Assembly (NCBI GenBank): GCA_965215615.1
Contig: OZ244068.1
Location: forward strand, 1,648,223 to 1,712,222
Reading direction: 5' to 3'
Length of the DNA: 64,000 nucleotides
Origin: Vicinamibacteria bacterium
GTDB taxonomy: Bacteria; Acidobacteriota; Vicinamibacteria; Marinacidobacterales; Marinacidobacteraceae
Positions 1,886-55,478 of this stretch are shown in pieces. The first letter of the stretch is position 1, and each line of letters opens with the position of its first letter. The notes under the pieces were generated by a model that saw only the letters and a list, made by a program, of their open reading frames with translations, did not search any database and was not told the origin of the DNA. The position numbers and the translations under genes were made by a program.

Positions 1886-3229
1886 ATGAAGATCGGCCGC
1901 CTTCTCGCTGCGCCCCTGCTGTTCGCCTCGCTCGCCTCGCTTGCCCCCGCCCAGCCGAGCGTCCTCCCGATGCGGGAGCGGGCAGCGCTCGTGGATCGCT
2001 GGCTCGACATCCGCTTCGAGACGGTGCTGCCGGAAATCATGCGGCGCGAAGGGGTGGATCTGTGGATCGTGGCGGCCCGCGAATACAACGAGGATCCGGT
2101 GATCCGGACCATGCTCCCCTACACCTGGCTCGCCGCCCGGCGGCGCACGGTGCTGATGTTCCATGACCTTGGAATGGAAGAAGGAGTCGAGCGGCTCGCG
2201 GTGGCCCGCTACGACATCGGCGGCATCCCGCGGGCCTGGGATCCCGATTCGGAGCCCGATCAATGGGGCCGGGTCGCGGAGCTCATCCGCGAACGGGATC
2301 CGGAGGTGATCGGGATCAACTGGTCCGAGGACTTCGGGCTCGCCGACGGTTTCACCGCGAGCGAGAACGCGGCGTTCCGGGAAGCGCTCGGGCCAGAACT
2401 CGCGGGCCGGGTGAAGCCGGTGGAGCGGCTCGCCATCGCCTGGCTCGAAACCCGGACCCCGGAGGAGATGGAGGTCTATCCGGGAGTGGTGCGGCTTGCC
2501 CGCTGGATCCTCTCGCGGGGGCTCTCCGGCGAAGTCATCCAGCCGGGGGCAACCACCACCGACGATGTCTCGTGGTGGTACCGGGAGAAAATCCGGGAAC
2601 TCAAGCTCCAGGCGTGGTTCCAGCCGGGCGTCTCGGTGCAGCGGCACGAAACCCAGGCCGTCGAGCTACGCGAGGACTACTCGGGGCGTCCGCCGCCGAA
2701 CACCATCCTCCCCGGTGACCTGATCCACGTGGACCTCGGGATCACCTACCTGCGGCTCAACACCGACACCCAGATGAATGCCTACGTGCTGCGGCCCGGC
2801 GAGACCGACGCTCCGGAAGGACTCCGCGAAGCGTTCGCAATCGGAAACCGGCTCCAGGACATCCTCACCGACGAGTTCGTCAGCGGCCGCACCGGGAACG
2901 AGATTCTCGGGGCGGCGCTCGAACAGGCGAGCCTCGAAGGAATCCGGGCTTCCATCTACACCCACCCGATCGGCTACCACGGCCACGGAGCCGGCCCCAC
3001 CATCGGCCTCTGGGATCGCCAGGAAGGCGTCCCCGGCAAGGGCGACTACCCGCTCTTCCCGATGACCGCCCACGCGATCGAGTTGAACGCGCGGGTTCCG
3101 GTCCCCGAGTGGGACGACCAGGAAGTCCGGATCGCTCTCGAAGAGGATGCCTTCTTCGACGGCGAAAGCACCTGGTACATCGATCCCCGCGCCGAACGGT
3201 TGCTGCTCATCCCCCGCCAGGAGAACTAG
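1886..3229 (+). CDS. secreted M24-family metallopeptidase (Xaa-Pro aminopeptidase/prolidase-like)
   Basis: ATG at 1886 gives signal peptide MKIGRLLAAPLLFASLASLAPA; creatinase/prolidase N-domain; metal-ligand region 'HPIGYHGHGAGPTIGLWD'; the upstream part of the track ORF is a non-coding extension. Confidence 0.8.
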   Translation: MKIGRLLAAPLLFASLASLAPAQPSVLPMRERAALVDRWLDIRFETVLPEIMRREGVDLWIVAAREYNEDPVIRTMLPYTWLAARRRTVLMFHDLGMEEGVERLAVARYDIGGIPRAWDPDSEPDQWGRVAELIRERDPEVIGINWSEDFGLADGFTASENAAFREALGPELAGRVKPVERLAIAWLETRTPEEMEVYPGVVRLARWILSRGLSGEVIQPGATTTDDVSWWYREKIRELKLQAWFQPGVSVQRHETQAVELREDYSGRPPPNTILPGDLIHVDLGITYLRLNTDTQMNAYVLRPGETDAPEGLREAFAIGNRLQDILTDEFVSGRTGNEILGAALEQASLEGIRASIYTHPIGYHGHGAGPTIGLWDRQEGVPGKGDYPLFPMTAHAIELNARVPVPEWDDQEVRIALEEDAFFDGESTWYIDPRAERLLLIPRQEN

Positions 3230-11170: not shown

Positions 11171-12928
11171 TCAGCCCTCCCGAACCTCTTCTCCGGCCGG
11201 ATTCCGAAGGCGCGGCGTGAGAAAAATGATCAGCTCTTCCTCCCGCTCACGCGACCCGGAAGACCGGAAGAGCCTCCCCAGCAGCGGGATGCGATGGAGG
11301 AAGGGAACGCGCTGTTGGTCTTCCGATTCCTGGGTAACGAACACGCCCCCCAGAACCGTCGTCTGCCCGTCCACGACCCGGACCCGGGTGGTCGCCTGCT
11401 GGGTCAGGATGCTCGGGATTCCCCCGACCGCCTGCCCGAAGTCGAGGGTGTCGTTGTTGACCGCGAGATCCAGCAGGATGGTCCCGTCGGGGCCGATCTC
11501 GGGCGTGACGGTGAGCTCGAGCACCGCATCCTGGAATTGGACGGTCACCGTGTTGTTGGCCACCACCTGGACCGGGAAGGTGACTCCCTGCTTGATGGTC
11601 GCCGGACGGGCGTTCTGGGCCACGATGCGCGGCGCCGAAAGGATCCGGAGATCGCCACGCCGCTCGGCGGCGGTGAGCGCCAGATCGATGCGATCCACTC
11701 CGGGAATGGCACCGAGCGCGATCCCGAGCGCCCCGGTCGGCCTCCCGACAGCCGGGAGGTTCACCGCGTATCCCGGCCTGCTTCCGTCCGGTGCCGCAGG
11801 CGGGAGCAGGCCCCCTTCCGCTCCTTCGGTGAACCCGGACGTTCCGGAGGCTCCGAGCGCGCCACCGTCCACCCGGGCTTCTCCCCCGGAGCCGCCGCGG
11901 ATCACTTCCCCGCCCCACTGGATTCCGAGGCTGCGGCTCTCGGACCGGGTGGTCAGAACGATCCGCGCCTCGATTTCGACCCCCGGGACCGCCACGTCGA
12001 GAGCCGAGATCATGTCTTCCAGCGCTTCCATCCTCCCTTCCACTTCGCGAATCAGAAGAACACCGGTCCGGGCATCCGCGATCAGGGAGCCCCGCTCGCT
12101 CAGCCGTTCGGCGAGCAGATCCCGGACCTGCTCCGGAGAGACGTGCGCGAGCCGTCTCACCCGGCTCAGGAGGGCACCGGCCAACTCCTGCTCTTCCTCC
12201 TGCCGGGCGCGCTCGATTTCTTCGGCGGAAAGCTCGGAGAGCGTCCCGACCCGCAGCACGGTTCCCTCGAGAGTCCAGCCGAGCCCGCGCGAGCGAAGGA
12301 TCACATCGAGAGCCTGATCCCAGGGAGTTTCGGTGAGACGAAGGCTGATCCGCCCGGCGACCGTGGGCTGGAGCACGAAGTCGAGCCCGCTCACCTCCCC
12401 GAGCACCCGGAGCACGTCCCGGATGTCGGCATCCCGAAAATCGAGCGTGACCCGCTCCGCCTCCAGCTCTTCCATCTCCTGCTGCTCGATTTCCTTCTCT
12501 TCCTCCGGGGCCGGTGATTCTCCCGGCGGTTCCTCCAGCGGTTCGGGCGGGGCCGGAACATCCCCGGATGCCGAGGCGCAAGCGATTTCGAGACCGCCCG
12601 AGGCTTCGTCGAAATCACATCGGACCCCGGAGCTCAGTTCGAGCACGAGTTCGGCCTGCCCGTCCCCGGCGACGCGGATCCGCACGCTCCGGATCTCGGC
12701 AGTCCCGACTTCCCAGACACCCCGGACCGCGCCGATGTCCACCCGGCCGAGCCCGAGCGTCATCCGCTCGCTTCCCCGCAGGATGCTCACCGGCGACAAC
12801 GGGCCATCGGCGAGCAACCGCACCCGGGTGATTTCCAGATCGCGGCGCAACTCCACTGCGGTGACCGGAAGAAGCGGAGCTTCGGTCTGTGCTCCGAACG
12901 AACAGGCAAAAAGGACCGCGAGAATCAT
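11171..12928 (-). CDS. pilQ: type IV pilus secretin PilQ
   Basis: Signal peptide; AMIN-like N-domain; C-terminal secretin domain '...VPFLHRIPLLGRLF...LIIFLTPRL'; 4-nt overlap with the upstream pil gene. Confidence 0.85.
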   Translation of the reverse strand: MILAVLFACSFGAQTEAPLLPVTAVELRRDLEITRVRLLADGPLSPVSILRGSERMTLGLGRVDIGAVRGVWEVGTAEIRSVRIRVAGDGQAELVLELSSGVRCDFDEASGGLEIACASASGDVPAPPEPLEEPPGESPAPEEEKEIEQQEMEELEAERVTLDFRDADIRDVLRVLGEVSGLDFVLQPTVAGRISLRLTETPWDQALDVILRSRGLGWTLEGTVLRVGTLSELSAEEIERARQEEEQELAGALLSRVRRLAHVSPEQVRDLLAERLSERGSLIADARTGVLLIREVEGRMEALEDMISALDVAVPGVEIEARIVLTTRSESRSLGIQWGGEVIRGGSGGEARVDGGALGASGTSGFTEGAEGGLLPPAAPDGSRPGYAVNLPAVGRPTGALGIALGAIPGVDRIDLALTAAERRGDLRILSAPRIVAQNARPATIKQGVTFPVQVVANNTVTVQFQDAVLELTVTPEIGPDGTILLDLAVNNDTLDFGQAVGGIPSILTQQATTRVRVVDGQTTVLGGVFVTQESEDQQRVPFLHRIPLLGRLFRSSGSREREEELIIFLTPRLRNPAGEEVREG

Positions 12929-13901: not shown

Positions 13902-14578
13902 GACCCCTCCCCGTCGCCGCCGAGCGCCGCGATCAGGGCGACGAGCGGTTCGGGTTCGCGCGAGTTGAACCGGAGCGCACCCGCGAGCGAGAAGCGGTGA
14001 TCCCCCAACATCGTGGCCCGAACGTCTCCTCCCCCTCCGCGTTCGACGTACTGGAGAGTCAACGTCCGGACCCGATCCATCCCGGCGAACCGCTCCGCGG
14101 CGCTCCGGGCCGCACCGGTGGACCCGGTCCGTCCGGTAATCACGAGCTCGTCTCCCCGGCGGCTCAGGTTCTCGAGAACGACCCCGTCTCCGATTTCGAG
14201 CGCGAGCTCCCGGAGCAGATCGGGGAGCACGTAGCGCTCCTCGTCCCAGCGCTCGAGACGGCCGGACACGATGTGCAGCCGTTCGAGATGTCTTCGATCC
14301 TCCGCAATCTGGCTGGCGAGTCCCTCGAGATCGGCGATCCGCGTCTCGATCTGGCCGGCGACGGCGGATTCGGCCCGATGGCGGGTGTCGAGGCGGCGCG
14401 CGTCGGTGATCGCGACCAGGGTGGAGAGCGCGACGAGCCCGGTGCCAGCGAGAAGCGGCAACGCCGCGCCCCGGACCCTCCATGGACGGGCGGACTTCTG
14501 AAGGAGGCCTTCTTCCGGAAGCAGGTTCAGGCCGCGCCGGGGGCGAGCGATGGCAGACGGGCGGGTTTCGCGTTTCAT
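13898..14578 (-). CDS. pilN: type IV pilus assembly protein PilN
   Basis: 'MKRETRPSAIARPRRGLNLLPEE' PilN-type N-terminus with TM helix; ATG at 14576-14578; overlaps pilM stop by 4 nt. Confidence 0.65.
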   Translation of the reverse strand: MKRETRPSAIARPRRGLNLLPEEGLLQKSARPWRVRGAALPLLAGTGLVALSTLVAITDARRLDTRHRAESAVAGQIETRIADLEGLASQIAEDRRHLERLHIVSGRLERWDEERYVLPDLLRELALEIGDGVVLENLSRRGDELVITGRTGSTGAARSAAERFAGMDRVRTLTLQYVERGGGGDVRATMLGDHRFSLAGALRFNSREPEPLVALIAALGGDGEGS

Positions 14579-15540
14579 GACGAGTCCTCTAGATGGTTCT
14601 TGGCGAGTCCGGCCGCAAATGCGAGCGCCGGATCCCGACGTTCGGAATCGAAAAAGCCGATCGGATCGAGAACGGCTGGCTCTCCACGGGCAAGCGGCCG
14701 GAGCACTTCGTGGATTTCCTTCTGCCCCGCCCCGCCGCCACTCAGACGCACGGAACACGGCGGAGCGAGTCCGGCCTCGGCCAGCGCTTCCGCGAGCGCA
14801 GCAGCGACGCGCTTCCCGAGCGGGGATTCGGAGAAAGCCTCCTCGGAGCCGGTGCCCACGCCCCCACCCGGAGCCTGGACGCTCGCCGCCAGATCGGCCC
14901 AGGGCACCGCATCCCCGCCCGGAGACGGCGATACGAAGCGGAATACGTGGACCGCCGCGTGGGAAGCGCCCACTTCGACGATCGAGATCGGTTGCTCCCC
15001 GACCGCCCGGGAGTCGCCGAGCCGGTTCTCGAGCTCCCAGGCGGCGAGCAGGCCGTACGGTTCGATCTCCACCCGTCGGGGCGCGAGACCGGCTCGCGCG
15101 ACCGCCCGTCCGTGGCTCAGAACCAGATCACGGCGCGCCGCGCCAAAAACGACGCACCTGCCGCCCTCGCCGTTCCACGCCCGACCCCGCTCGAAATCGA
15201 ACAGCAAATCCTGCATGTGAAACGGGATGTGCCGGGCCGCTTCGGCCTCGACCGCCTGCCGCAAGGAGCCTTCCTCCCCGGCGGAGCCTTCCGGCAGGAC
15301 GAGACGCTTGACCAGGTACGCCCTGCCGCCGACTCCCACCGAAGCCGTCCGGCTCCGGACTCCCAACCTGCCGACGAGGCGCTCCAGGGCATCGCCGGCG
15401 GCTTCCCCATCGAGTACCGCGCCTTCCCGCACCACCCCCGAAGGAAGCGGCTCGCTCCCGGCAGCAACCAGGCGGATTTCGGTCCGCTCCCGGGCGAGCG
15501 CCACCAGCTTCACCGAGGACGCACCGAAGTCCACGCCCAC
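14575..15540 (-). CDS. pilM: type IV pilus assembly ATPase-like protein PilM (actin-like)
   Basis: 'GVDFGASSVKLVAL' PilM/FtsA-like N-terminus; start uncertain (GTG at 15538-15540 just below the conserved 80-nt element, or ATG at 15618 inside it). Confidence 0.75.
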   Translation of the reverse strand: MGVDFGASSVKLVALARERTEIRLVAAGSEPLPSGVVREGAVLDGEAAGDALERLVGRLGVRSRTASVGVGGRAYLVKRLVLPEGSAGEEGSLRQAVEAEAARHIPFHMQDLLFDFERGRAWNGEGGRCVVFGAARRDLVLSHGRAVARAGLAPRRVEIEPYGLLAAWELENRLGDSRAVGEQPISIVEVGASHAAVHVFRFVSPSPGGDAVPWADLAASVQAPGGGVGTGSEEAFSESPLGKRVAAALAEALAEAGLAPPCSVRLSGGGAGQKEIHEVLRPLARGEPAVLDPIGFFDSERRDPALAFAAGLAKNHLEDSS

Positions 15541-15562
15541 CCCGAACTCGGGGCGGGACCAA

Positions 15563-15641
15563 CTGATTCGATCGGGGAACACACTTACATTGACGCAACA
15601 GCGCCCTTTTTGTCCCACCTGGGGTCCAAAATGTGGAAAAC
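15563..15641 (-). repeat. conserved ~80-nt intergenic element, copy A (inverted relative to copy B at 47215..47294)
   Basis: Reverse complement 'gttttccacattttggaccccaggtgggacaaaaagggcgctgttgcgtcaatgtaagtgtgttccccgatcgaatcag' matches 47215..47294 at ~90% identity; both copies follow a '...ATVRW' stop. Confidence 0.8.
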
Positions 15642-15660
15642 TTCTACCCCGCCCGCGCCC

Positions 15661-15985
15661 TCACCAGCGTACGGTGGCCTCGATCCCGAAGATGTGCACA
15701 CCGGGGCCAGGGGCTCCCCCTCGCGGCGGGCCGAACGCGAGGTCGGACGCCATCGGCGGACTCTGACAACTGTGTTTCTGCCCGCTACCTGCCTCAATGC
15801 GATGTCCACCGCCGAGATCACGTAGCCTTCGCGATTGGCCCCGGTGGTGCATTTCGTCGCAATTTCAGCGGGAGTACCGAGCCTTCCGTTTTCCTCTCAC
15901 CAGCGTCGTCTGCGCTTCGGCACCGGGAGCGAGGCCGAGCAGCAGCGGCAGGAAGAGAGGCACACGAAGAGAGGCACACAAAAAC
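15661..15985 (-). pseudogene. degraded paralog of the giant autotransporter-like gene (signal-peptide end fused to C-terminal beta-barrel tail)
   Basis: Minus strand encodes '...LAPGAEAQTT' (17/18-nt match to 'gccgaagcgcagacgac' at the signal-peptide end of 34409..47212). In another frame it encodes '...ASDLAFG...GVHIFGIEATVRW*', ~80% nt identity to the last ~100 nt of the giant gene; broken frames; the ~12-kb interior is missing. Confidence 0.55.
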
Positions 15986-16148
15986 GGGCGCGCCACCACG
16001 CGCGAGACGCGGGAACAACGCCTCAACCCGCCCGTTGTTGTTTCGTTGTTGGTTGGAGGGGGGCTGCACGATGTCCTGCCACCTCGTCGTTCCGGGCGAT
16101 AACGCAACCCGCAGTCATTTCGGCTGGCTTTCCGCCGTATTTCCCCTG

Positions 16149-16177
16149 TTGACCGTCGGGAGAGCCACGCCTATACT
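16149..16177 (+). promoter_or_regulatory. sigma70-type promoter candidate for rplM-rpsI
   Basis: TTGACC (16149-16154), 17-nt spacer, TATACT (16172-16177), ~100 nt upstream of the rplM ATG. Confidence 0.45.
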
Positions 16178-34382: not shown

Positions 34383-34403
34383 CCCCCCCCCCCCCCCCCC
34401 CCC
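34383..34403 (+). repeat. homopolymeric poly-C tract (21 nt) ending 5 nt upstream of the giant gene ATG
   Basis: Direct reading: C run 34383-34403, then 'gaaaa', then ATG at 34409; no SD-like purine run; in-frame TAG 48 nt upstream rules out an earlier start. Confidence 0.95.
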
Positions 34404-34408
34404 GAAAA

Positions 34409-37400
34409 ATGCGCGGTGTAAGGGGCTGGTTTCGTGGGCGGGTAGCCCTGTCATGCAGGAGTCTCCGGGGCGTTCTCGCCGCCGCGCTGCTGTTCGGCAT
34501 CGCCACCGCCGCCGAAGCGCAGACGACCGTCACTTTCGTAAGCAATCTGAATAGCGAAGGCGGAACCGACAATGCTAATACATTTAGAGATCGCCTAGCG
34601 CAATCCTTCACCACGGGTGCCAGCAGTGGCGGCTATCTCCTGTCGTCCGTCGAGATCTACCTCGGTAGAAATGCCTATGTAGGGGGCACCCCTGTGGTCG
34701 TCATCCGTGCGGACAGCAGTGGCGACCCCGGTGATGTCGTAGTCACCCTGACCAATCCGGGAAGCTATCCCGGAAGGCAAGATAGAGATGGGGGCACTGC
34801 CATCTTCACCGCCCCAGCGGGCACGACGCTCGCCGCGAGCACCACCTACTGGGTGGTCATCAACGACGAAGATCGAAGTCTTTTCTGGGCGAGCGCCTAC
34901 AGCAAAAACCACACGACGACGGGACTGCCCGGCTGGAGCATGGGTGGTACAAAGATACGTCGACAGGGTGCTACTAATTGGGCAACTTTTGACGACCTAC
35001 TACCGATGGAACTCAGCGGCACGGTGGTCACTGCCAGCGGCCCCGACGCCCCCGCGAACCTGCAGGCGGTGGTGAGCAGCGGCCAGGTGGAGTTGACATG
35101 GGATGACCCGTCGGACGACACGATCACGAAGTACCAGTACCAGCAGCGGACGCCTCCCAGCACCGGCACCTGGGGAGAGTGGACGGACATTTCGAACAGC
35201 GACGAGGACACCACCGATCACACGGTGACGGGGTTGACGAACGGCACGGAGTACGAGTTCGGGGTGCGTGCAGTGGCGGGGAGCACGAACGGCACGGCGG
35301 CCACGGTGAGCGCGACGCCCGTCGCCCCACCGGCAGCGCCGACGAGCCTGACGGCCAGGGCGGGTGCCACCCAGGTCACGCTGAGCTGGACCGACCCGGG
35401 CAACGCCACGATCACGAAGTACCAGGTGCGTTACGGCGCGGGCCTGACCACCGATTCGGGCTTCAGTTGGGGGACGTGGGCAGACGTTTCGAGCAGCAGC
35501 GCGACCACCACGAGCGCCACGGTGACCGGGCTGACGAACGGCACGGAATACACCTTCGGGGTCCGCGCCGTCGGCCTTTCGGGGGATGGCGCGGAGGCGA
35601 CGGTGTCGGCGACGCCTTTGGCCTCGGGCGCCCCGGCCAAGCCGACGGGCCTGACGGCGACAGCGGGCGGTAGCAGCGTCACCCTGAGCTGGACCGCCCC
35701 GAGCGGCACGATCACGAAGTACCAGGTCCGTCAGGGGACGGGCGATCCGGTCATGTGGGGGGCGTGGGCGGACATCACGGGCACCACGAGCCACACGGTG
35801 ACGGGCCTGACGAACGGCACGGAATACAGCTTTCAGGTGCGCGCGGTGGCGAACACGGTGCTGGGTGCGATGTCGGACACGGCGTCCGCGACGCCGAACG
35901 CCCCGCCGGCGGCGCCCGCCGGCTTGAAGGCCGAGGCGTACCCCGCCGAGATCAGACTGGAGTGGACCGAGCAGACCGACGACACCATCACCGGGTACCA
36001 GTATCAGACCCGCGCCAGAAGCGAAGGCGACTGGGGCGACTGGAGCGGCTGGAGCAATGTGCCCCTCGGCGAAGTCGGCGAGGATGACAAGGTCTTCAGC
36101 TTTTCGGGCAAGAGCTATTACAAGGTGGCCGACCTGACCAACGGCACCGAGTACGGCGTCCGGATCCGGGCGGTGGCCGGAACGGTGCCCGGCGCGGCGT
36201 CGGCCATCGTGACCGGGACTCCGAACGTCCGGCCGCTCGCGCCCACGGGCCTGAGCGCCACGGCGGGCGACGGGCAGGTCAGCCTGACGTGGGACGATCC
36301 CTCGAACGCCGCGATCACCAAATACCAGGTGACTTACGAGGTGGTCGCCACGAGCGTGCCCGCGACGGAGGACGTCCCGGTCAACGGCGCCACCACCAGC
36401 CACACCGTGACGGGCCTGGTGAACGGCACCCTGTACAGCTTCGAACTCGTCCCCTTCGCCGGCACGGTGTCGGGCCCGTCTTCGGGCAAGGTGCGGGCGA
36501 CCCCGACGGCCCCGGCGGGCCTGACGCTGACGCAGCCGGACGACAGGCAGGTGGACGAGGGCGACACCGCGGACACGGCAACCTTCACGGTCGCGCTGAG
36601 GAGCTTGCCGGCCGCGGACGTGATGGTGACGGTGACCGCCCCCGCCGGGCTGGAACTCGACGGCCCGGATGCCGGCGGCGTGTTTGCTTCCAGCGAGGAC
36701 CTCGCCTTCACCACCGCGAACTGGAACAGCGCGCAGACGGTGACGGTGCGCGCCACCGACGACAGCACGGACAGCCCGAGCGGGCGGGAAGAGGTCATCG
36801 CCTGGTCCGCGACCTCGACGGACACCGACTACAGCGGCCTGAAAGGCGATGCGGCCACCGTCACGGTGGTGGACAACGACCCGACGACGGTGACGCTCGC
36901 GGGCGCCGCCGGGGATGTGACCGAGGGCGGGACGAAGGACTTCACCGTCACCCTGGGGCGCGGCCTGGTGAGCGGCGAGAGGCTGGTGGTGCCGCTGACC
37001 TTCGGCACCGGCACCGGCACCGCGACGCGGAACACGGACTACACGGTGGCGTGCCCCTCGCCGCTGCCGGACGGGGCCGGAGTGGTCTGCGCGAACCTGA
37101 ACACCGGAAACGCGGCGTTGACCTTCGCCGGTCCGAGCATGGGGGAGACGTTGAAGGAGGTGACGCTGACGCTGAGTGCGGCGAGCGACAACACGACCGA
37201 AACGGGCGGCGAGACGGTGATCATCGGCCTCGGCACGCTGAACGCGAGTTCGGGGACCGGTCTGGAGGGCGGGGCGAGCGGCACCGACAGCCTGGCGGAC
37301 TTCAAGATCACCGACCCGGACGCGAGTGTGCCGACGGTTGCGATCACCGGGATCCCGGCGAAGATCAACAACACGAACGCGCTGACGGCGACCTTCACCT

Positions 37401-40400
37401 TCTCGGAGGCGGTGACGGGCTTCGAGAAGGCCGACATCACGGTGACGGGCGGCACGGCGGGCACGTTCTCGGCGACGAGCACGACGGTCTATACGCTCGG
37501 GATCACTCCCGACGGCGATGCGAACGTGGTGGTGACGGTGGCGGCGAACAGCGCGACCGACGGCACGAACATGGGCCCGGCGAGCGCGGAGAGTGCGACG
37601 GCCGTGTGGGACGAGACGGCGCCGACGGTCGAGATCACCGGGGTACCCGGCAAGATCAGCAACCGCGATGCGTTCACCGTGACCTTCAGCTTCTCGGAGA
37701 CGGTGACGGGCTTCGACACGGACGATGTCAGCGTCACGAACGGCGACAAGAGCGCGTTCTCGGGCAGCGGCAGCAGCTATACGGTGGTGGTGACCCCGAA
37801 TGCCGACGCGGACGTGACGGTGACGGTGGCCGCGGGCGGCGCAACCGACGGGTTGAACACCGGCCCGGCGAACGCGGTGAGCGCGACGGCCACCTGGGAT
37901 GCGAGCGTGCCGACGGTCGAGATCAGCGGGGTACCGAAGAGGATCACGACCCGCGCCGCGTTCACGGTGACGTTCACCTTCTCGGAGTCGGTGACGGATT
38001 TCGTGACCGGCGATGTCACGGTCACGAACGGCGACAAGAGCTCGTTCACGGGCAGCGGCAGCAGCTATACGGTGGTGGTGACCCCGAATGCCGACGCGGA
38101 CGTGACGGTGACGGTGGATGCGAACTCGGCGACGGACGGCACGAACACCGGCCCGACGGCCGATGTGGTCGCGACCGCGGTGTTCGGCGCGCCGGCGGCG
38201 CCGACCGTGACGGCGACGGCGGGGAACGGTCAGGTCACTCTGAGCTGGACCGACCCGTCCGACGACACGATCACTGAGTACGAGTATCAGCAGCGGGAGG
38301 AGGGCGGCACCTGGCCGAACAGCTGGACGGACATCGCGAACAGCGCGAGTCTCACCGAGTACGCGGTCACCAGCCTGACGAACGGGACGACCTACGAGTT
38401 CCGGGTCCGCGCCGTGTCCGGGACGGTGACCAGCCCGGCCTCGAGCGTCGTGACCGCGACGCCTCTCGCGGCGACCGCCCCCGGCCCGCCGCGGGACCTG
38501 AGGGTCGCGCCGGGCGACGGGCAGGTCGTTCTGAATTGGCGTGTCCCCGGAACCAACGCCGACGCGATCACGAAGTACGAGTTCCGCCAGGGAACGGGCG
38601 ACCCCCTCGCCTGGGGTGCGTGGGGGGACGCCTCCGGCACCACCACGAGCCACACGGTGACGGGCCTGACGAACGGCACGGAATACAGCTTTCAGGTGCG
38701 CGCGGTGGCGAACACGGTGCTGGGTGCGATGTCGGACACCGTGGAAGCGACTCCCAACCCGGTACCGGCCGCCCCGACGAACTTCACGGCCACGAAGGGG
38801 ACAGCCAGCGGCGCTATCGCCCTGAGCTGGACCGCCCCGAGCGGCACGATCACCAGGTATGAATACCGGCTCCGCCCTGTCGGTGGTGACTGGCCACAAA
38901 GCTGGACCCGCTTGACTGTCCTCGTCACCAGCTTCACGGTGGGGAGCCAGACGGACGGCACGGAGTACGAGATCGAACTCCGCGCCGTCAACGATTCGGG
39001 CGCGGGTGCCGCCGCCAGCGCGACCGCGACCCCGTTGGACCCGACCGCCGCGGCGGCGCCGACGAGCTTCACGGCGACGGCGGGGAGCGGTCAGGTCGCT
39101 CTGGCATGGACGGCCCCGAGCGGCACGATCACGAAGTACCAGGTGCGGCAGGGGACGGGCGATCCGGTCGTGTGGGGGGCGTGGGCGGACATCACGGGCA
39201 CCACGAGCCACACGGTGACGAGTCTGACGAACGGCACGGAATACAGCTTCCAGGTGCGTGCGGTGACCGGGACTTCGGTGCTGGGTGCGATGTCGGCGAC
39301 CGCGACGGCGACGCCGACGGCCGCGCCGGGGGTGACGATCTCGGTGACGGACGCGTCGGTGAGCGAGGCCGACCAGACGGACACGGCGACCTTCACGGTG
39401 GTGCTGAACACGGAGCCGTCGTCGGGGCTGGTGGTCGTGAGCGTGGATGCAAGCGGAGCCCCCGGGCTGGAGCTCGACGGCCCGGACGCCCCCACTGCGT
39501 TCAGCAACGCCGAGGTCCTGACGTTCACCACCACGAACTGGAACAGCCCGCGGACGATCAGGGTGCGCGCCACTTCCGAGGCCACGGACAACCCGAGCGG
39601 CCGGGAGGAGACGATCACCTGGACCGCGACTGCGACCGCGGATACCGACTACCAGAACCTGACCGGGGATGCGGCGACGGTCACGGTGGTGGACAACGAC
39701 CCGACGACGGTGACGCTCGCGGGCGCGGCGGGGGATGTGGCCGAGGGGGCGACGAAGACCTTCACGGTGACCCTGGGCCGGGGTCTGGTGGACGGCGAGA
39801 CGCTCGGGGTGCCGCTGGCCTTCACCGGTACCGCGACGCGGGGCACGGACTACATGACGGCGTGCCCGACGACACTTCCGACCGGGGTGACCTGTAACGA
39901 CCTCGACGACACGAGCCTGACCCCGACGGTGACCTTCACGGGGCCGACCTCGGGGGCGACGGCGCGGACGGTGACGCTGACGCTGAGTGCGGCGAGCGAC
40001 AACACGACCGAAACGGGCGGCGAGACGGTGATCATCGGCTTCGGCACGCTGACGGCCACCGGTCTGGAGGGTGGCACGAGCACCACCGACAGCCTGGCGG
40101 ACTTCAAGATCACGGACCCGGACGCGAGTGTGCCGACGGTTGCGATCACCGGGATCCCGGCGAAGATCAACAACACGAATGCGCTGACGGCGACCTTCAC
40201 CTTCTCGGAGGCGGTGACGGGCTTCGAGAAGGCCGACATCGCGGTGACGGGCGGCACGGCGGGCACGTTCTCGGCGACGAGCACGACGGTCTATACGCTC
40301 GGGATCACTCCCGACGGCGACGCGAACGTGGTGGTGACGGTGGCGGCGAACAGCGCGACCGACGGCACGAACATGGGCCCGGCGAGCGCGGAGAGTGCGA

Positions 40401-43400
40401 CGGCCGTGTGGGACGAGACGGCACCGACGGTGGAGATCACCGGGGTACCCGGCAAGATCAGCAACCGCGATGCGTTCACCGCGACCTTCAGCTTCTCGGA
40501 GACGGTGACGGGCTTCGACACGGACGATGTCAGCGTCACGAACGGCGACAAGAGCGCGTTCTCGGGCAGCGGCAGCAGCTATACGGTGGTGGTGACCCCG
40601 AATGCCGACGCGGACGTGACGGTGACGGTGGCCGCGGGCGGCGCAACCGACGGGTTGAACACCGGCCCGGCGAACGCGGTGAGCGCGACGGCCGTGTGGG
40701 ACGAGACGGCGCCGACGGTGGATATCACCGGGATACCGGCGAAGATCAACAACACGAATGCGCTGACGGCGACCTTCACCTTCTCGGAGTCGGTGACGGG
40801 CTTCGCGAAGAGCGACATCACGGTGACGGGCGGCACGGCGGGGGCGTTCGGGGGCAGCGGCACCACCTATACGCTCGCGATCACCCCGACGAGCGGTTCG
40901 AACGTGGTGGTGACGGTGGCTGCGAACAGCGCGACCGACGGCACGAACATGGGCCCGGCGAGCGCGGAGACGGCGACGGCCACCTGGGATGCGAGCGTGC
41001 CGACGGTCGGGATCACCGGGGTGCCGGCGCGGATCAGCGGCACGAGCGACCTGACGGCGACGTTCACCTTCTCGGAGGATGTCACGGGCTTCGTGAAGAA
41101 CGACATCACGGTGACGGGCGGCACGGCGGGCACGTTCACGGAGAGCAGTTCCACGGTCTATACGCTCGTGATCACCCCCGACGGCGACGCGAACGTGGTG
41201 GTGACGGTGACGGCGGACAGCGCGACCGACGGGTTGAACATGGGCCCGGCGAGCGCGGAGACGGCGACGGCGGTGTGGACCGCCCTGGTCTTCAACCCGG
41301 CGGCGGTGACCGTGGTCGAGGAGGCGAGCGCGACCTACACGGTGGAACTCTCGAGCCAGCCCGATGGGAACGTCACGGTGACGGTCTCGGGGGCGAGCGG
41401 GGAGGTGACGTTCGACACCGACTCCACGACGCCGGGCACCCAGACGACGGCGCTGACCTTCACGACGACCACCTGGGACGATGCGCAGACGGTGACGGTG
41501 TTGGCGGCGGCCGACGGCGACACGGCGAACGACAGCGCGACGCTGACGCACACCGCGTCGGGCGGCGGGTACGGCTCGGTGACCGGGGATGTGGAGGTGA
41601 CGGTGACCGACAACGACACGCCGGGTCTCGTCCTCGATCCGACGAGCCTGACGGTGGCGGAGGGCGGCAGCGGCACCTACACGGTGGCGCTCGCGACCCA
41701 GCCGACGGCGAGCGTGACGGTGACGGTCGCGGGGGCGAGCGGCGAGGTGACGTTCGACACCGACGGCGACACGGGCGGCAACCAGAACACGCTGACCTTC
41801 ACGACGAGCGACTGGGGCACGGCGCAGACGGTGACGGTGTCGGCGGGTCAGGACAACGATGCCGACGACGACAGCGCGACGCTGACGCACAGCGCGTCGG
41901 GTGGCGGCTACGGCTCGGTGACCGGGAACGTGGCGGTGACGGTGACCGACGACGACACGGCGAGCGTGGTCACGACAGAACCCGACGCGACGGCGACCGA
42001 GGGCAGCACCACGGACGAGGCGACCTTCACGGTGGCGCTGAACACCCGGCCGTCGAGCGATGTCACGGTGACGGTGACCGCGCCGACGGGTCTGACGCTC
42101 GACGGCCCGGACAGCGCCACCACGTTCACGAGCAGCGAGGGCCTCACCTTCACCAGCACGAACTGGAGCACGGCGCAGACGGTGACGGTGCGCGCGACCG
42201 ACGACAACGATGACAGCCCGATCGGTCGGGAACTGACGGTCACCTACGCCGTGACTTCGTCGGACAGTGGCTACAGCGGCCTGAGCGGGGATGCGGCGAC
42301 GGTCACGGTGGTGGACGACGACCCGACGACGGTGACGCTCGCGGGCACTGCCGGGGATGTCGTGGAGGGCGGGACGAAGACCTTCACGGTCACGCTGGAG
42401 CGCGGCCTCGTGAACGGCGAGACGTTGCCGGTGCCGCTGACCTTCGGCGGGGACGCGACGCGGGGCACGGACTACACGACGGCGTGTCCCACGACACTGC
42501 CGACGGGGGTGACCTGCGCGAACCTCGACTCGGGGACCCCGACGGTGACCTTCACGGGGCCGAGCACGGGGGCGACGGCGACGACGGTGACGCTGACCTT
42601 GACGGCGACGACGGACAACACCGCGGAGGCGGGCGGCGAGTCGGTGGTCATCGGCCTCGGCACGCTGAACGCGAGTTCGGGGACCGGTCTCGGGGGCGGC
42701 GCGAGCGGCACCGACAGCCTGGCGGACTTCGACATCACCGACCCGGACGCGAGCGCGCCGACGCTCGAGATCAGCGGGGTACCGAAGAGGATCACGACCC
42801 GCGCCGCGTTCACGGTGACGTTCACCTTCTCGGAGTCGGTGACGGACTTCGTCACCGGCGATGTCACGGTCACGAACGGCGACAAGAGCTCGTTCACGGG
42901 CAGCGGCAGCAGCTATACGGTGGTGGTGACCCCGAATGCCGACGCGGACGTGACGGTGACGGTGGATGCGGACTCGGCGACGGACGGCACGAACACCGGC
43001 CCGCCGGCCGATGTGGTCGCGACCGCGGTGTTCGGCGCGCCGGCGGCGCCGGCCAGTCTCTCCGCCACGGCGGGCAACGCCGCGGTCACCTTGAGCTGGA
43101 CCGACCCGATGGACGACACGATCACCGGGTACGAGTTCCGTCAGGGTGTCCAGAGTTCGCCCGTCACCTGGGGCAGCTGGACGCCCATCACGAACAGCGA
43201 CAAGGACACCACCTCCCACACGGTGACGGGTTTGACCGACGGCACGGAGTACTACTTCCAGGTCCGCGCGGTGTCCGATGCGGTGATGGGCGAGCCCTCG
43301 GCCGAGGAGAACCGGGACGCGGTGGTAACACCGGTGGCGGTGAACGCGCCGGCGGCGCCGACGGGCCTCGGGGCGACGGCGGGCAACGGCCAGGTGGCCT

Positions 43401-46400
43401 TGAGCTGGACGGCCTCGAGCAGCAACGGCATCACGAAGCACCAGGTGCGCAGCGGATCGGGCGATCCGCTCGTCTGGGGGAGTTGGACGGACATCGCGAA
43501 CAGCGCCAGTATCACGAGCCACACGGTGACGGGGCTGACGAACGGGACGGAGTACAGCTTCCAGGTGCGCGCGGTGGCGACGGCGGTGCTGGGTGTGACG
43601 TCGGACACGGCGGTCGCGACCCCGAGGGGTGCCGCGGGCGTGACGACGACGCAGCCGAGCGACCGGCAAGTGACCGAGGGTGACACTTCGGACACGGCGA
43701 CCTTCACGGTGGAACTCGACACCCAGCCGTCGAGCGATGTCACGCTGACGGTCGAGGCTGTCGCCGGGCTGGAACTCGACGGCCCGGACGGCGCCACCGC
43801 GTTCACGGCGAGCGAGGCGCTGACCTTCACGAGCAGCAACTGGGGCACGGCGCAGACGGTGACGGTGCGCGCCACGGACGACAGTGTTGACAGGCCCAGC
43901 GGGGGCGATCTGACCGTGAGCTACTCGATAGCATCGTCGGACAGTGGCTACAACTTGCTCTTCGGTGTGGCCGCCCTCGTCACCGTCATCGACAACGACC
44001 CGACCGCGGTGACCCTTGCGGGGGCCGCCGGGGACATCACCGAGGGCGAGACGAAGGACTTCACCGTCACGCTGGGCGTGCGCGGTCTGGTGAGCGGCGA
44101 GACGCTCGGGGTGCCGCTGACCTTCACCGGTGGCGCGACGCGGGGCACGGACTACACGACGGCGTGTCCCTCGTCGCTGCCGACCGGGGTGACGTGTAAC
44201 GACCTGAACACGGCGGCGACTCCGACCGTGACCTTCACCGGGCCGAGCACGGGGGAGACGGCGCGGACGGTGACGCTGACGCTGAGTGCGGCGACGGACA
44301 ACACGGCCGAGACGGGCGGCGAGACGGTGATGATCGGCCTCGGCACGCTGACGGCTACCGGTCTGGAGGGCGGGGCGAGCGGCACGGGCAGTCTGGCGGA
44401 CTTCCGGATCACCGACCCGTCGGCGACGGACACGACGGTACCGACGCTTTCGATCTCGGGAGTACCGGGGACGATCAGCACGAGGGCGGCGTTCACGGCG
44501 AACTTCACCTTCAGCGAGTCGGTGACGGACTTCGATACGAACGACATCACGGTGACCGGCGGGAGCAAGGGCACGCTCTCGGGCAGCGGGAGGAGCTACC
44601 GGATGCGGATCACGCCGACCGGCGGGGTGAACGTGGTGGTGACGGTGCGTCGAAATGCGGCGACCGACGGCACGAACCGGGGCCCGGCGGCGGCGGTGTC
44701 GCGGACCGCGACCTGGCGTGCCCCGAGTCCGCCGCCGCAGCAGCCGCCAGCGGAGGAAGACGACGACGATCCGCCTTCTTCCGGTGGTGGCGGCGGTGGT
44801 GGGGGTAGTACCCCGTCCCTCCCCTCGGCTTCTCTGTCCGCCGTCTCGGTGAGCGCGGGGCAGATGGTGATCGAGGGCGGCGAGGCGCTGTTCCGGATCA
44901 CCGCGAGTCCGGTGCCGAGCGACGAGATCACGGTGCGGGTGCGGGTGTCGGCGACGGGCGACTTCGTGGACGGGGTGCAGCTCGGCGAGCGGCTCGTCAC
45001 GCTCTCGGCTTCGGCGCCCACGGCGAGTCTGCGGGTAGCCACCATCGATGACCGCCGGAACGAGGCGGACGGGACGGTGACGGTGACGGTGCTTTCGGGC
45101 GAGGACTACCGCCTGTCGCAGGCCTCGGCCTCGCTCGCGGTCACGGACGACGACACGCCCGCGCTGGTCCTGACTCCGGAGACGCTGACGGTGGACGAGG
45201 GCGGCAGCGGGAACTACCGGGTGGCGCTCGCCACCGAACCCGCCGGCGATGTGACGGTGAGCATCGCGGGCACGGGTGAGGTGACGACGGCGCAGAACAC
45301 GCTGACCTTCACCGCGGGGAACTGGAACGTGGCGCAACCGGTGACAGTGTCGGCGGGGCAGGACGCGGATGCGGCGGACGACCGGGCGAGACTGGATCAC
45401 CGCGCGAGCGGCGGCGGCTACGACTCGGTGACCGGCAGCGTGGCGGTGACCGTCATGGACGACGACACGCCGGGCCTGATCCTGACTCCGGCGGCGCTGA
45501 CGCTGGCGGAAGGCGCGAGCGCGAGCTACACGGTGGCACTCGCCACCGAGCCGACGGGGAACGTGACGGTGAGCATCGCGGGCACGGGCGATGTGACGGT
45601 GGACCGGAGCACGCTGAGCTTCACCGCCCGGAACTGGAGCGCGGCGCAGACGGTGACGCTCTTCGCGGCGCGGGACGAGGATGTGGCGAACGACAGCGCG
45701 ACGCTGGCGCACCACGCACGGGGCGGTGACTACTCATCGGTCACCGGCAGCGTGGAGGTGACGGTGACGGATGCGGGCGCGGCGGTGGTGTCGGCGCATC
45801 TGGCACGGTTCGGCCGGACGGTGGCGGAGCAGGCGCTCGACGGGATCGCGGGAAGGCTGCGGGCGCCGCGCACGGCGGGGATGCAGAAGACGCTCGCAGG
45901 TCCCCGCCTGAACGTTCCGCGCGAAGGAGATACGGCGCAGGGCACGATGCACGCCGAGGCGCGGAGGACCGGCTTCGAGAACGAGTACGAGAGCCAAAAC
46001 CGCGACCTGCTGCACCTCCCGAACGCCCGGGAAATGCTGCTCGGGTCGAGCTTCACGCTCACGACCCAGGAGGCGGAGGGAACCGGGGGCAGCTTCGCCT
46101 TCTGGGGCCGGGCGAGCGCGAACCGCTTCGACGGCGCCACGAACGACGGAGCCACGGCGATCGGCCTCGACGGCGAGGTGCTGACGGGTCTCGTGGGCGC
46201 GGACTATGCGCGGGGCGACTGGCTCTTCGGCCTGGCGCTGACCCACAGCCTCTCCGAGGGGGGCTACACCAGCGAAGGTGCCAGCGGCGGCAAGGTGGAT
46301 GCGTCGCTGACGGCGGCGCTGCCGTATGCGTCGATCCAGGCGAACCCGCGGCTGAAGCTCTGGGGTGCGGGCGGCTACGGCATCGGCGAGGTGACGCTCA

Positions 46401-47212: not shown

Positions 47213-47214
47213 CA

Positions 47215-47294
47215 GTTTTCCACATTCTGGCCCCCAGGCGGGACAAAACGGGCGCTGTTGCGTCAATGTATGTATGTTCCCCGATCGAATCAGG
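47215..47294 (+). repeat. conserved ~80-nt intergenic element, copy B (pairs with 15563..15641)
   Basis: See copy A; sits 2 nt after the giant gene stop. Confidence 0.8.
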
Positions 47295-47347
47295 CGTGAC
47301 GATGCGGGGCAGGTGGATACGGCTACACTGAACCACGGACCCGTTCG

Positions 47348-47944
47348 ATGACCGACGAAAAAATGACCGACGCAGAGCTGAAAGCGCTGGTTGCTGGCCT
47401 GGCCACGGCGCAGGACCGCACCGATGCCCAGATGGCGAAGACCGATGCCAAGATCGACCGGCTGGTGGACCGAATTGCGGAGACCGAGGTCCTGGTGAGG
47501 GAAACCTCCGTCGAAATCAAAGAGCTGTCGAAAATGTACGGCGGTGCCAGCAACAACCTGGGCGCGGCGGTCGAGGAGTTCTTCTACAACAGCCTCAAGG
47601 CCCATCCGGTTCTCGGTGGGGTGCGCTTCGAATCCGTCGAAAGGAACGTCCCGGGCCGCGACGACAAAACCGGCCAGAAGGACGAGTTCGACCTGCTGCT
47701 CGTGAACGGCAGCGAGGTGTTCGTCGTGGAGGTGAAGCACAGGGCGCACAAGGACGACCTGAAGGACCTGCTGGACGAGAAGGCACCGAACTCCCGGCGG
47801 ATGTTCCCGAAGTACGCCGGCCACCGGCACCGGTTCGCTCTCGCCACGTTCCACATCCATGACGAACTGAAGGAGTCGGCTCTGGAGAAGGGGGTGACCG
47901 TGCTGCAGCGCAAGGGCGACGTGATCGAAACCTCCCCGGCCTGA
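47348..47944 (+). CDS. hypothetical protein: N-terminal coiled coil plus C-terminal PD-(D/E)xK-like nuclease fold
   Basis: N-terminus is a heptad-like K/E/D-rich helix; C-terminal 'DEFDLLLVNGSEVFVVEVKHR' fits a D...E-x-K restriction-endonuclease-like core. Confidence 0.5.
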   Translation: MTDEKMTDAELKALVAGLATAQDRTDAQMAKTDAKIDRLVDRIAETEVLVRETSVEIKELSKMYGGASNNLGAAVEEFFYNSLKAHPVLGGVRFESVERNVPGRDDKTGQKDEFDLLLVNGSEVFVVEVKHRAHKDDLKDLLDEKAPNSRRMFPKYAGHRHRFALATFHIHDELKESALEKGVTVLQRKGDVIETSPA

Positions 47945-48046
47945 AGCGGGGCGAACGGCGCTCGGCAGGCTCTTCGGAGGGTAGCTCAGCCTCCCTCCGC
48001 GCCGCTCCACCCGGGTCACGATGAGCCGCTGCTACTCTCGCGTGCC

Positions 48047-54849: not shown

Positions 54850-54907
54850 GGGATTCCTCCTCGTGCGAGCGTACACCACATGGACTCGGGAACCCCGGAG
54901 GCCCGCC

Positions 54908-55168
54908 TTGCGCACCGTGAACCTGCGTTACGCCAAGGCCCACCACTCCCGCCTCGTGCGCGAAGCGGTGAGCGGGCAGCCGTTCGTCATCGCCCGCGCC
55001 GGGAAACCGCTGGTGCGGGTCACGGCCATACCGGAGGAGACCCCGGCGAAGCGACTGATCGGTTGTCTCGACGGGCAGTTCTCGGTTCCCGACGACTTCG
55101 ACACCATGATGGCGGATGAGATCCAGGCGATGTTCGAAGGCAAGCCCAAGGAACCAATCCCGAAATAG
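54908..55168 (+). CDS. Phd/YefM-family antitoxin, orphan upstream copy (TTG start)
   Basis: 'RTVNLRYAKAHHSRLVREAVSGQPFVIARAGKPLVRV...'; ~119 nt identical to copy 2; the ATG is replaced by TTG; no toxin gene follows. Confidence 0.55.
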   Translation: MRTVNLRYAKAHHSRLVREAVSGQPFVIARAGKPLVRVTAIPEETPAKRLIGCLDGQFSVPDDFDTMMADEIQAMFEGKPKEPIPK

Positions 55169-55202
55169 ACTAAGCTGACTGAACTAACCCCGGAGATCCA
55201 CC

Positions 55203-55478
55203 ATGCGCACCGTGAACATGCACCACGCCAAAACCCACCTCTCGCGTCTCGTCCGCGAAGCGGTGAGCGGGCAGCCGTTCGTCATCGCCCGCGCCGGGAA
55301 ACCGCTGGTGCGGGTCACGGCCATACCGGAGGAGACCCCGGCGAAGCGACTGATCGGTTGTCTCGACGGCCAGTTCTCCGTACCGGACGACTTCGACACC
55401 ATGATGGCGGACGAGATTCAGGCGATGTTCGAGGGCAAGTACAAGGGCGTTCTCGATGAGGGACACGAACAGGAGTGA
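55203..55478 (+). CDS. Phd/YefM-family antitoxin (copy 2)
   Basis: 'MRTVNMHHAKTHLSRLVREAVSGQPFVIARAGKPLVRV'; stop overlaps the toxin GTG start (GTGA). Confidence 0.8.
   Translation: MRTVNMHHAKTHLSRLVREAVSGQPFVIARAGKPLVRVTAIPEETPAKRLIGCLDGQFSVPDDFDTMMADEIQAMFEGKYKGVLDEGHEQE

Follow-up and report, generated by a model that had tools for sequence, protein, structure and literature searches.

A repeated 80-nt element behind autotransporter genes of a Vicinamibacteria bacterium is very probably a copied pilM 5′ end

Why does a nearly identical stretch of 80 nt follow both a giant autotransporter (AT) gene and the remnant of another AT gene on the opposite strand? In the window analyzed here (the whole 64-kb stretch of DNA from a Vicinamibacteria bacterium), this element formed an inverted pair at 15563-15642 on the minus strand (copy A) and 47214-47293 on the plus strand (copy B), the arms of which lay ~31.6 kb apart. 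Each copy was 80 nt long, and the two shared 93% identity, with six substitutions and no indels. Both followed the stop codon of a coding sequence ending in ATVRW, with a spacer of 18 nt in copy A and 1 nt in copy B, and the inverted pair described by the initial annotation is thus real. These were the only two copies in the window, and a 21-nt core occurred exactly twice, compared with 0.00 occurrences expected from shuffled sequences. The homology of the pair continued 5′ into ~100 nt of coding sequence (repeat pairs I4 and I7). The element had a GC content of 54%, which was AT-richer than its surroundings, and contained the palindrome TTGCGTCAA and the motif TGTGGAAAAC. The evidence given below makes it highly likely that the element is the 5′ end of pilM, which was copied together with an AT gene into a multi-copy cassette consisting of an AT and a NERD gene, and that it is an ordinary relic of duplication.

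Copy A lies at the start of a minus-strand gene cluster (pilM–pilN/O–pilP–pilQ), which is oriented divergently to rplM-rpsI. Pfam matches in this cluster included PilM_2, PilO, and Secretin (the secretin at 11171-12928), and the same arrangement (rpsI-rplM divergent from pilMNOPQ) was found in a conspecific genome (L081) and in three related species (L001, L082, and L083). L13 similarity placed the organism among the Vicinamibacteria of the Acidobacteriota, with "Ca. Marinacidobacterium sp." (L001, 85% L13 identity) as the nearest named relative. The same 80 nt were present, ungapped, directly before pilM in L001, L082, and L083 to L086, in the intergenic region between the divergent rplM and pilM genes. 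The PilM proteins of L001, L082, and L083 were 57, 62, and 55% identical to that of the window, respectively, and the homology of these three species to the window began exactly at element position 1. None of the three carried an AT remnant near pilM. The element was restricted to this genus-level group and was lacking in the more distant L021.

The initial annotation had placed copy A between the remnant and the pilM start, but copy A contains the GTG start codon (15582-15580) and the first seven codons of the gene. Element positions 61-80 (15563-15582, minus strand) correspond to this GTG and to codons 2-7 (F P D R I S), as indicated by the PilM alignment, the TIGR01175 profile, and the codon-position bias. 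The complete pilM coding sequence (14575-15582, minus strand) encodes 335 aa and is the first gene of pilM-N-O-P-Q, an assignment based on Pfam, TIGR01175, and synteny. An ATG or GTG was found at element position 61 in nine of the nine copies examined, and the protein alignment gave the PilM N-terminus as MF(P/S/Q)DRI(S/G)W(S/T)R(P/V)E.G.GV(D/E)FG, which is equal in length to that of distant PilMs such as MSRLSFRFQRPLHGVGVDFG. Position 5 of the TIGR01175 profile aligned to PilM residue 14, and the start of this model falls near residue 10. Over the first 40 codons from position 61 onward, the counts of variable sites at codon positions 1, 2, and 3 were 12/7/25; upstream, they were 12/11/12, i.e., without a 3-nt periodicity. 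Element positions 1-60 (15583-15642, minus strand) are non-coding native pilM upstream DNA, as shown by ungapped positional orthology in L082, L001, and L083. Twenty-five of these 60 positions were invariant across the four species, and the conserved blocks included GTTWTCCACA, an A-run at positions 32-35, and C42/G44/T46/CGT48-50. The spacing of the blocks relative to the start was fixed in all four species (GTTWTCCACA at -59 to -50, the A-run at -29 to -26, and YTRCGT at -16 to -11). As read from these alignments, the 80-nt element is 60 nt of pilM upstream DNA followed by 20 nt from the beginning of the pilM coding sequence.

Gene callers extended PilM upstream through the element (15583-15618) and yielded proteins of 347 and 370 aa (P0121 and P0124) because the upstream frame is open by chance. 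Judging from the alignment, the public annotation of the pilM start (the calls of 347-370 aa) is probably too far upstream, and the true protein here probably has 335 aa. A pilM start at a GTG near 15540, with a GC-rich hairpin as 5′UTR, was ruled out since the PilM alignment places this hairpin in codons 8-16. The hairpin (CCCGCCCCGA…TCGGGGTGGG, 15536-15557, minus strand) was kept in four species, with one compensatory change from C-G to G-C in L083, and may represent a structure of the translation-initiation region or a by-product of codon conservation. The palindrome of the element was lost in the orthologous pilM regions of the other species (CTGCGTGTA, CTGCGTCCT, and TTACGTGTT) and is therefore probably not a functional unit. 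A further palindrome, GTTTTCCA-N5-TGGAAAAC, was perfect in L001 only and degenerate elsewhere, and was discarded as a candidate for a conserved operator.

The 60 nt upstream of the start codon most likely constitute the promoter/operator of pilM together with a leader that lacks a Shine-Dalgarno sequence. On direct reading of the L001 sequence, a candidate -35 box of the rplM promoter lies at most ~5 nt from element position 1, so any pilM promoter must fall within these 60 nt. Consensus scans found no sigma-70 -35/-10 pair (16-19 nt spacer) at either copy, and a relaxed -35/-10 scan of six copies, comprising pilM orthologs and cassettes, found none at a conserved position. Hand inspection of the element gave no convincing fit to sigma-54 (GG-N10-GC), sigma-28, or ECF (AAC-N16-CGT) promoters, and a Shine-Dalgarno sequence was absent ahead of the pilM start. 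Since no sigma-70 pair could be placed in any ortholog, the promoter role rests on position and conservation; a pilM promoter with hexamers that cannot be placed would be non-canonical or activator-dependent and would have a short AU-rich leader. Searches of the literature on the genus name and on pilM promoters yielded nothing useful. The proposal that the element is a promoter for the downstream gene was thus nearly right in the case of copy A, as this copy comprises the native 5′ control region of pilM along with its start.

The neighboring rplM gene has a canonical promoter, TTGACC-17-TATACT (16149-16177, plus strand), which is followed by a leader of ~100 nt and then by rplM. The TATACT box recurred in L081, L082, L083, and L001, and the TTGACC box in L081 and L083. 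The canonical form of this promoter indicates that the organism uses sigma-70-type promoters.

A collapsed AT pseudogene (15643-16148, minus strand), recognized from repeat pairs I3, I4, and I7 and from alignments, separates the rplM promoter from the pilM upstream region. This remnant of ~500 nt was internally deleted and its reading frames were broken. It retained an AT 5′ region with a poly-C relic, a signal-peptide piece of 43 nt (15905-15947, matching 34485-34527 as repeat pair I3), C-terminal codons at ~15760-15661 that end in ATVRW and a stop codon, and the 18-nt spacer at 15643-15660. The block 15643-16148 was present in the conspecific L081, which is ~97% identical to the window. It was absent from L082, L001, and L083, in which homology stopped at 15641/15642 and resumed at ~16149. 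Because the block is missing from these relatives and its flanks are homologous, the AT remnant is a species-specific, and hence lineage-specific, insertion. No second partial copy of the element was found on the far side of the remnant.

Copy B lies in a different setting. It begins 1 nt past the stop codon of a giant AT gene (34409-47212, plus strand) and comprises the pilM-derived 60 nt of upstream DNA, an ATG (47274-47276), and six codons. The giant gene encodes 4267 aa with Fn3/Big_12 repeats, a signal peptide that ends between AEA and QTT, and a C-terminal AT-type beta-barrel. It matched TIGR01414 marginally (17.7 bits, with a cut-off of 16), and its homologues were named autotransporters or matched PF03797. 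The signal peptide, passenger, and C-terminal beta-barrel of a type Va autotransporter were thus all found, the barrel with a marginal score. Copy B ends 54 nt before a gene of 198 aa (47348-47944, plus strand) that encodes a coiled coil and a NERD/PD-(D/E)xK-like domain (24.9 bits against Pfam NERD, with a cut-off of 22.1). This gene belongs to a multi-copy family, with at least three paralogs on a 3.0-Mb source-like contig and at least six in the conspecific genome. A short ORF of 25 codons (MFPDRIRRDDAGQVDTATLNHGPVR; 47274-47351, plus strand) runs from the pilM-derived ATG to a TGA overlapping the NERD ATG.

The AT end, the pilM fragment, and the NERD gene together form a 4.4-kb dispersed repeat (43636-48003, plus strand), which starts ~3.6 kb before the end of the AT gene and continues for ~60 nt past the NERD gene. 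In the conspecific genome, the orthologous locus (L087) contained an AT gene of 5082 aa, then the element, and then NERD. Two paralogous cassettes, L088 (AT of 2204 aa) and L090 (AT of at least 2104 aa), likewise had the element between the AT stop codon and NERD. The window repeat was ~90% identical to L088 and L090 overall, and 95-100% identical in most segments of 60 nt; the block was common to the window, L087, L088, and L090, and its identity collapsed ~50 nt past the NERD stop codon. L089 contained a divergent tandem pair of NERD genes with neither an AT gene nor the element. Among distant NERD loci from metagenomes, 0 of 80 had an AT barrel or the element upstream, and no such NERD locus was found in viral contigs. 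A general rule that NERD genes follow autotransporters was ruled out by these 0 of 80 distant loci.

At least three cassettes with the element, plus the pilM copy, gave a minimum of four copies in the conspecific genome, from which the copy number was taken and which was ~97% identical over the compared stretches. The initial annotation had proposed that a lack of further copies, together with the lack of a transcript boundary, would reduce the element to a relic of duplication. Taken literally, further copies do occur; they exist because the element is embedded in the repeated 4.4-kb cassette. As to whether copies always follow AT-like genes, a check suggested by the initial annotation, the four or more conspecific copies all follow an AT gene or the remnant, and those of L001, L082, and L083 have no AT nearby. 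Every known copy was either at pilM or in the interior of an AT–NERD cassette. The exact 21-mer had no match in the genome and metagenome contig collections, both without this species, and exact searches with the conserved core patterns of the element found nothing in the collections of genomes, metagenomes, and viruses. The element also differed from dispersed repeats of the REP/MITE type, as its copies were tied to flanking genes and the palindromic core was not conserved.

The cassette genes showed several further features. A run of 21 C (34383-34403, plus strand) stops 5 nt short of the start codon (ATG) of the giant AT gene, and the AT gene of L088 has a run of 12 C (~3204-3215) that is followed by the same GAAAA and lies ~20 nt before the ATG. 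A short C-rich relic was also seen in the remnant beside pilM (~16055-16062). The C-run looks like a slipped-strand phase-variation tract for adhesin expression. The giant AT has 4267 aa here and 5082 aa in the ~97%-identical conspecific (L087, 1-9831), and its interior is built of repeats of ~290 nt and ~2.6-2.8 kb, which points to a repeat array that expands and contracts rapidly between strains. The closest database homologues of the AT beta-barrel (46070-47212) were just 50-55% identical and came from metagenome-assembled genomes assigned to many different phyla or classes, namely Rhodospirillaceae, Chromatiales, Deltaproteobacteria, Spirochaetaceae, and Acidobacteriota, with OX.. and OY.. 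locus tags. This distribution suggests that the barrel domain is shared horizontally in one community type, possibly sponge microbiomes. The acidobacterium studied here is likely sponge-associated. Lengths in the NERD family stepped by exactly 7 aa (170, 177, 184 … 247; P0129-P0248) in many members, owing to a variable number of heptads after a highly conserved N-terminus, MTD.ELKALVAGLA.AQDRTDAQ. The family matched no NCBIfam model, and its PADLOC match was faint. Elsewhere in the window, a tandem direct repeat of 261 nt (54891-55151 and 55186-55446, plus strand; 91% identity; D16) was found, and the syntenic site in L087 contained a PIN toxin gene preceded by a pair of adjacent PhdYeFM antitoxin genes; the repeat is probably a duplicated antitoxin.

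The direction of copying can be read from the cassettes. L087 and L090 kept ~18 decayed pilM codons (MFPDRIIWPRSGFGVTVV, compared with MFPDRISWSRPEFGVGVDFG in PilM), and the window copy and L088 lacked 15 nt of the pilM-derived stretch that is present in L087 and L090. Because the pilM coding sequence is complete and conserved at its own locus, whereas the cassettes carry a decayed part of it, copying proceeded from pilM to the cassette. We infer the following order of events. In the first step, an AT gene would have entered the space that separates the divergent rplM promoter from the pilM upstream region. The AT gene and ~115 nt of the pilM 5′ end, reaching ~55 nt into pilM, would then have been duplicated and joined before a NERD gene, and the resulting AT–pilM′–NERD cassette would have been multiplied or homogenized at several loci. 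The AT gene next to pilM would finally have shrunk through internal deletion to the remnant seen today. Copy A is the working original at its native site, and copy B is accordingly a hitchhiking pilM fragment within the 4.4-kb repeat. The 5′ edge of the element would mark the old AT insertion junction, and its 3′ edge the point at which the pilM fragment decayed or was deleted.

Two other explanations were considered for the element as such. The initial annotation had regarded it as a conserved RNA element of the AT transcript, either a 3′UTR-derived sRNA or a terminator/antiterminator. Its consistent position behind the stop codon in all AT copies observed and its AT-richness would fit such a role, but its origin lies in the 5′ end of pilM, and it is present without any AT gene in three species. 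No stable fold was predicted, with z-scores of -0.45 to +1.16 for both strands of both copies, with and without flanks, and scans found no terminator-like site at either copy. None of 4227 Rfam covariance models matched the window, L001, L082, or L083 at the gathering score. RNAalifold, applied to only four species, gave a covariation term of -0.25 kcal/mol and no covarying pair inside the element; the short helix at columns 20-29 was broken in one of the four species, and no helix that all four kept within the element contained a pair with both sides changed. The sole well-supported compensatory pair among the four species was located 3′ of the element, in the hairpin of pilM codons 8-16. Neither structure prediction nor the four-species covariance analysis of the 80-mer thus supported the RNA reading, be it as a 3′ element associated with autotransporters or as a terminator or antiterminator, and we consider it extremely improbable. 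Equally improbable is that the element serves in recombination or attachment, or marks a mobile-element end, and so directs the cassettes to new loci or lets the 31.6-kb segment invert. The element does lie at the AT/NERD junction in every cassette, and the inverted pair of A and B extends over ~200 nt at ~90% homology. However, the element is interior to the 4.4-kb repeat rather than at its ends, no integrase or transposase genes were called beside the cassettes, viral contigs gave no matches, and a second partial copy beyond the AT remnant, as noted above, is missing. Furthermore, the two copies have the same relative orientation in the conspecific, where their spacing is 33.8 kb instead of 31.6 kb, and this difference equals the difference in AT length. 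A pilM 5′ end that was duplicated along with the AT gene remains by far the preferred reading.

A separate question is whether the copied fragment acquired a role in the cassettes. The initial annotation had concluded from conservation beyond the coding sequence that the element was under selection or recently copied. The duplication does extend past the AT coding sequence, and recent copying suffices for copy B because divergence between A and B was similar in the element (6-8 of 80 positions) and in the flanking AT C-terminus (~10% plus two indels), which beside copy A is a pseudogene. The cassette copies of the element were nearly identical to each other, and their flanks were equally so. 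Nothing in these comparisons points to extra selection on copy B, which is most likely passenger DNA, and they lend no support to the part of the earlier claim that invoked selection for this copy. Nevertheless, the captured pilM promoter and start might function in the cassettes by driving or tuning NERD expression, with NERD translation coupled to the leader ORF and possibly to pilus-type regulation. An ATGA overlap is a classical layout for translational coupling. Such an overlap (47348-47351 in the window), together with the start and an open frame, was found in four of four cassette copies (window, L087, L088, and L090) and survived an in-frame 15-nt indel between variants, as the leader ORF has 25 codons in the window and L088 and 30 in L087 and L090. 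The element was also somewhat better preserved than the following pilM codons, with 8 of 33 positions diverged in the pilM-coding stretch 3′ of the element in the cassettes against 8 of 80 in the element (Fisher p = 0.07), and all six A/B differences fell at sites that vary between species and avoided ortholog-invariant ones ((42/80)^6 = 0.02, a value inflated by the constraint on copy A). The last two patterns are weak hints that leave room for some constraint or gene conversion on the cassettes.

On the other hand, the four cassette copies are recent or were homogenized from one arrangement, so their shared features are not independent, and the two probabilities are statistically weak. G44A, a change at a site otherwise invariant in the pilM orthologs, occurred in two of the four cassette copies (L088 and L090). 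In addition, a box, GGCTACACTG, located ~20-25 nt before the NERD ATG (47321-47330 in the window), was shared by the element-less NERD pair of L089, and NERD therefore probably has its own promoter at this box. A function of the captured promoter and start in NERD expression is thus unlikely. The more specific idea that the pilM fragment couples the NERD nuclease to the type IV pilus program through the leader ORF, perhaps under pilus-type control, is a long shot on the sequence evidence; if true, this coupling would act in giant adhesin loci that evolve in concert and are possibly phase-variable through their poly-C tracts.

The inverted pair itself was confirmed, and its earlier interpretation holds only in part. 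The main value of the analysis lies in a correction, as an apparent conserved 3′ RNA element of autotransporters turned out to be a copied gene start. The 80-nt element by itself raises no major question. The analysis also revealed a lineage-specific multi-copy cassette composed of a giant Fn3 autotransporter, a pilM fragment, and a NERD nuclease. The strong homogenization and strain-to-strain length variation of this cassette may be relevant to surface variation in uncultured, possibly host-associated Acidobacteriota.

Compared with known systems, the element resembles 3′UTR-derived sRNAs and intrinsic terminators solely in its position right after a stop codon; unlike them, it lacks a stem-loop with a U-tract as well as any structural signal or covariation, and it derives from the 5′ end of another gene. 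The short ORF of the cassettes is similar to translationally coupled upstream ORFs in that it is initiated by an ATG and has a TGA overlapping the downstream ATG, but this predicted ORF would be the chance product of a gene fragment and has no Shine-Dalgarno sequence. Like a promoter/leader region of pilMNOPQ, copy A lies directly 5′ of pilM, the first gene of the cluster, and is conserved in four species; on the other hand, it has no recognizable sigma-70, sigma-54, or Shine-Dalgarno sequence, and its GTTWTCCACA, A-run, and YTRCGT blocks match nothing assignable. The event is of a known kind, i.e., a segmental duplication carrying a gene start, rather than an sRNA, a terminator, a REP/MITE repeat, or an attachment site. 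As in other segmental duplications that include the 5′ fragment of a gene, the repeat continues into the AT-side flank, the coding piece is truncated and decaying, divergence is about that of the neighboring sequence, and pilM codons 1-7 were carried along, up to ~18 in the sister copies. It differs from such duplications in that the fragment spread secondarily as the interior of a multi-copy 4.4-kb AT–NERD cassette and by chance makes a short ORF that overlaps the start of the next gene.
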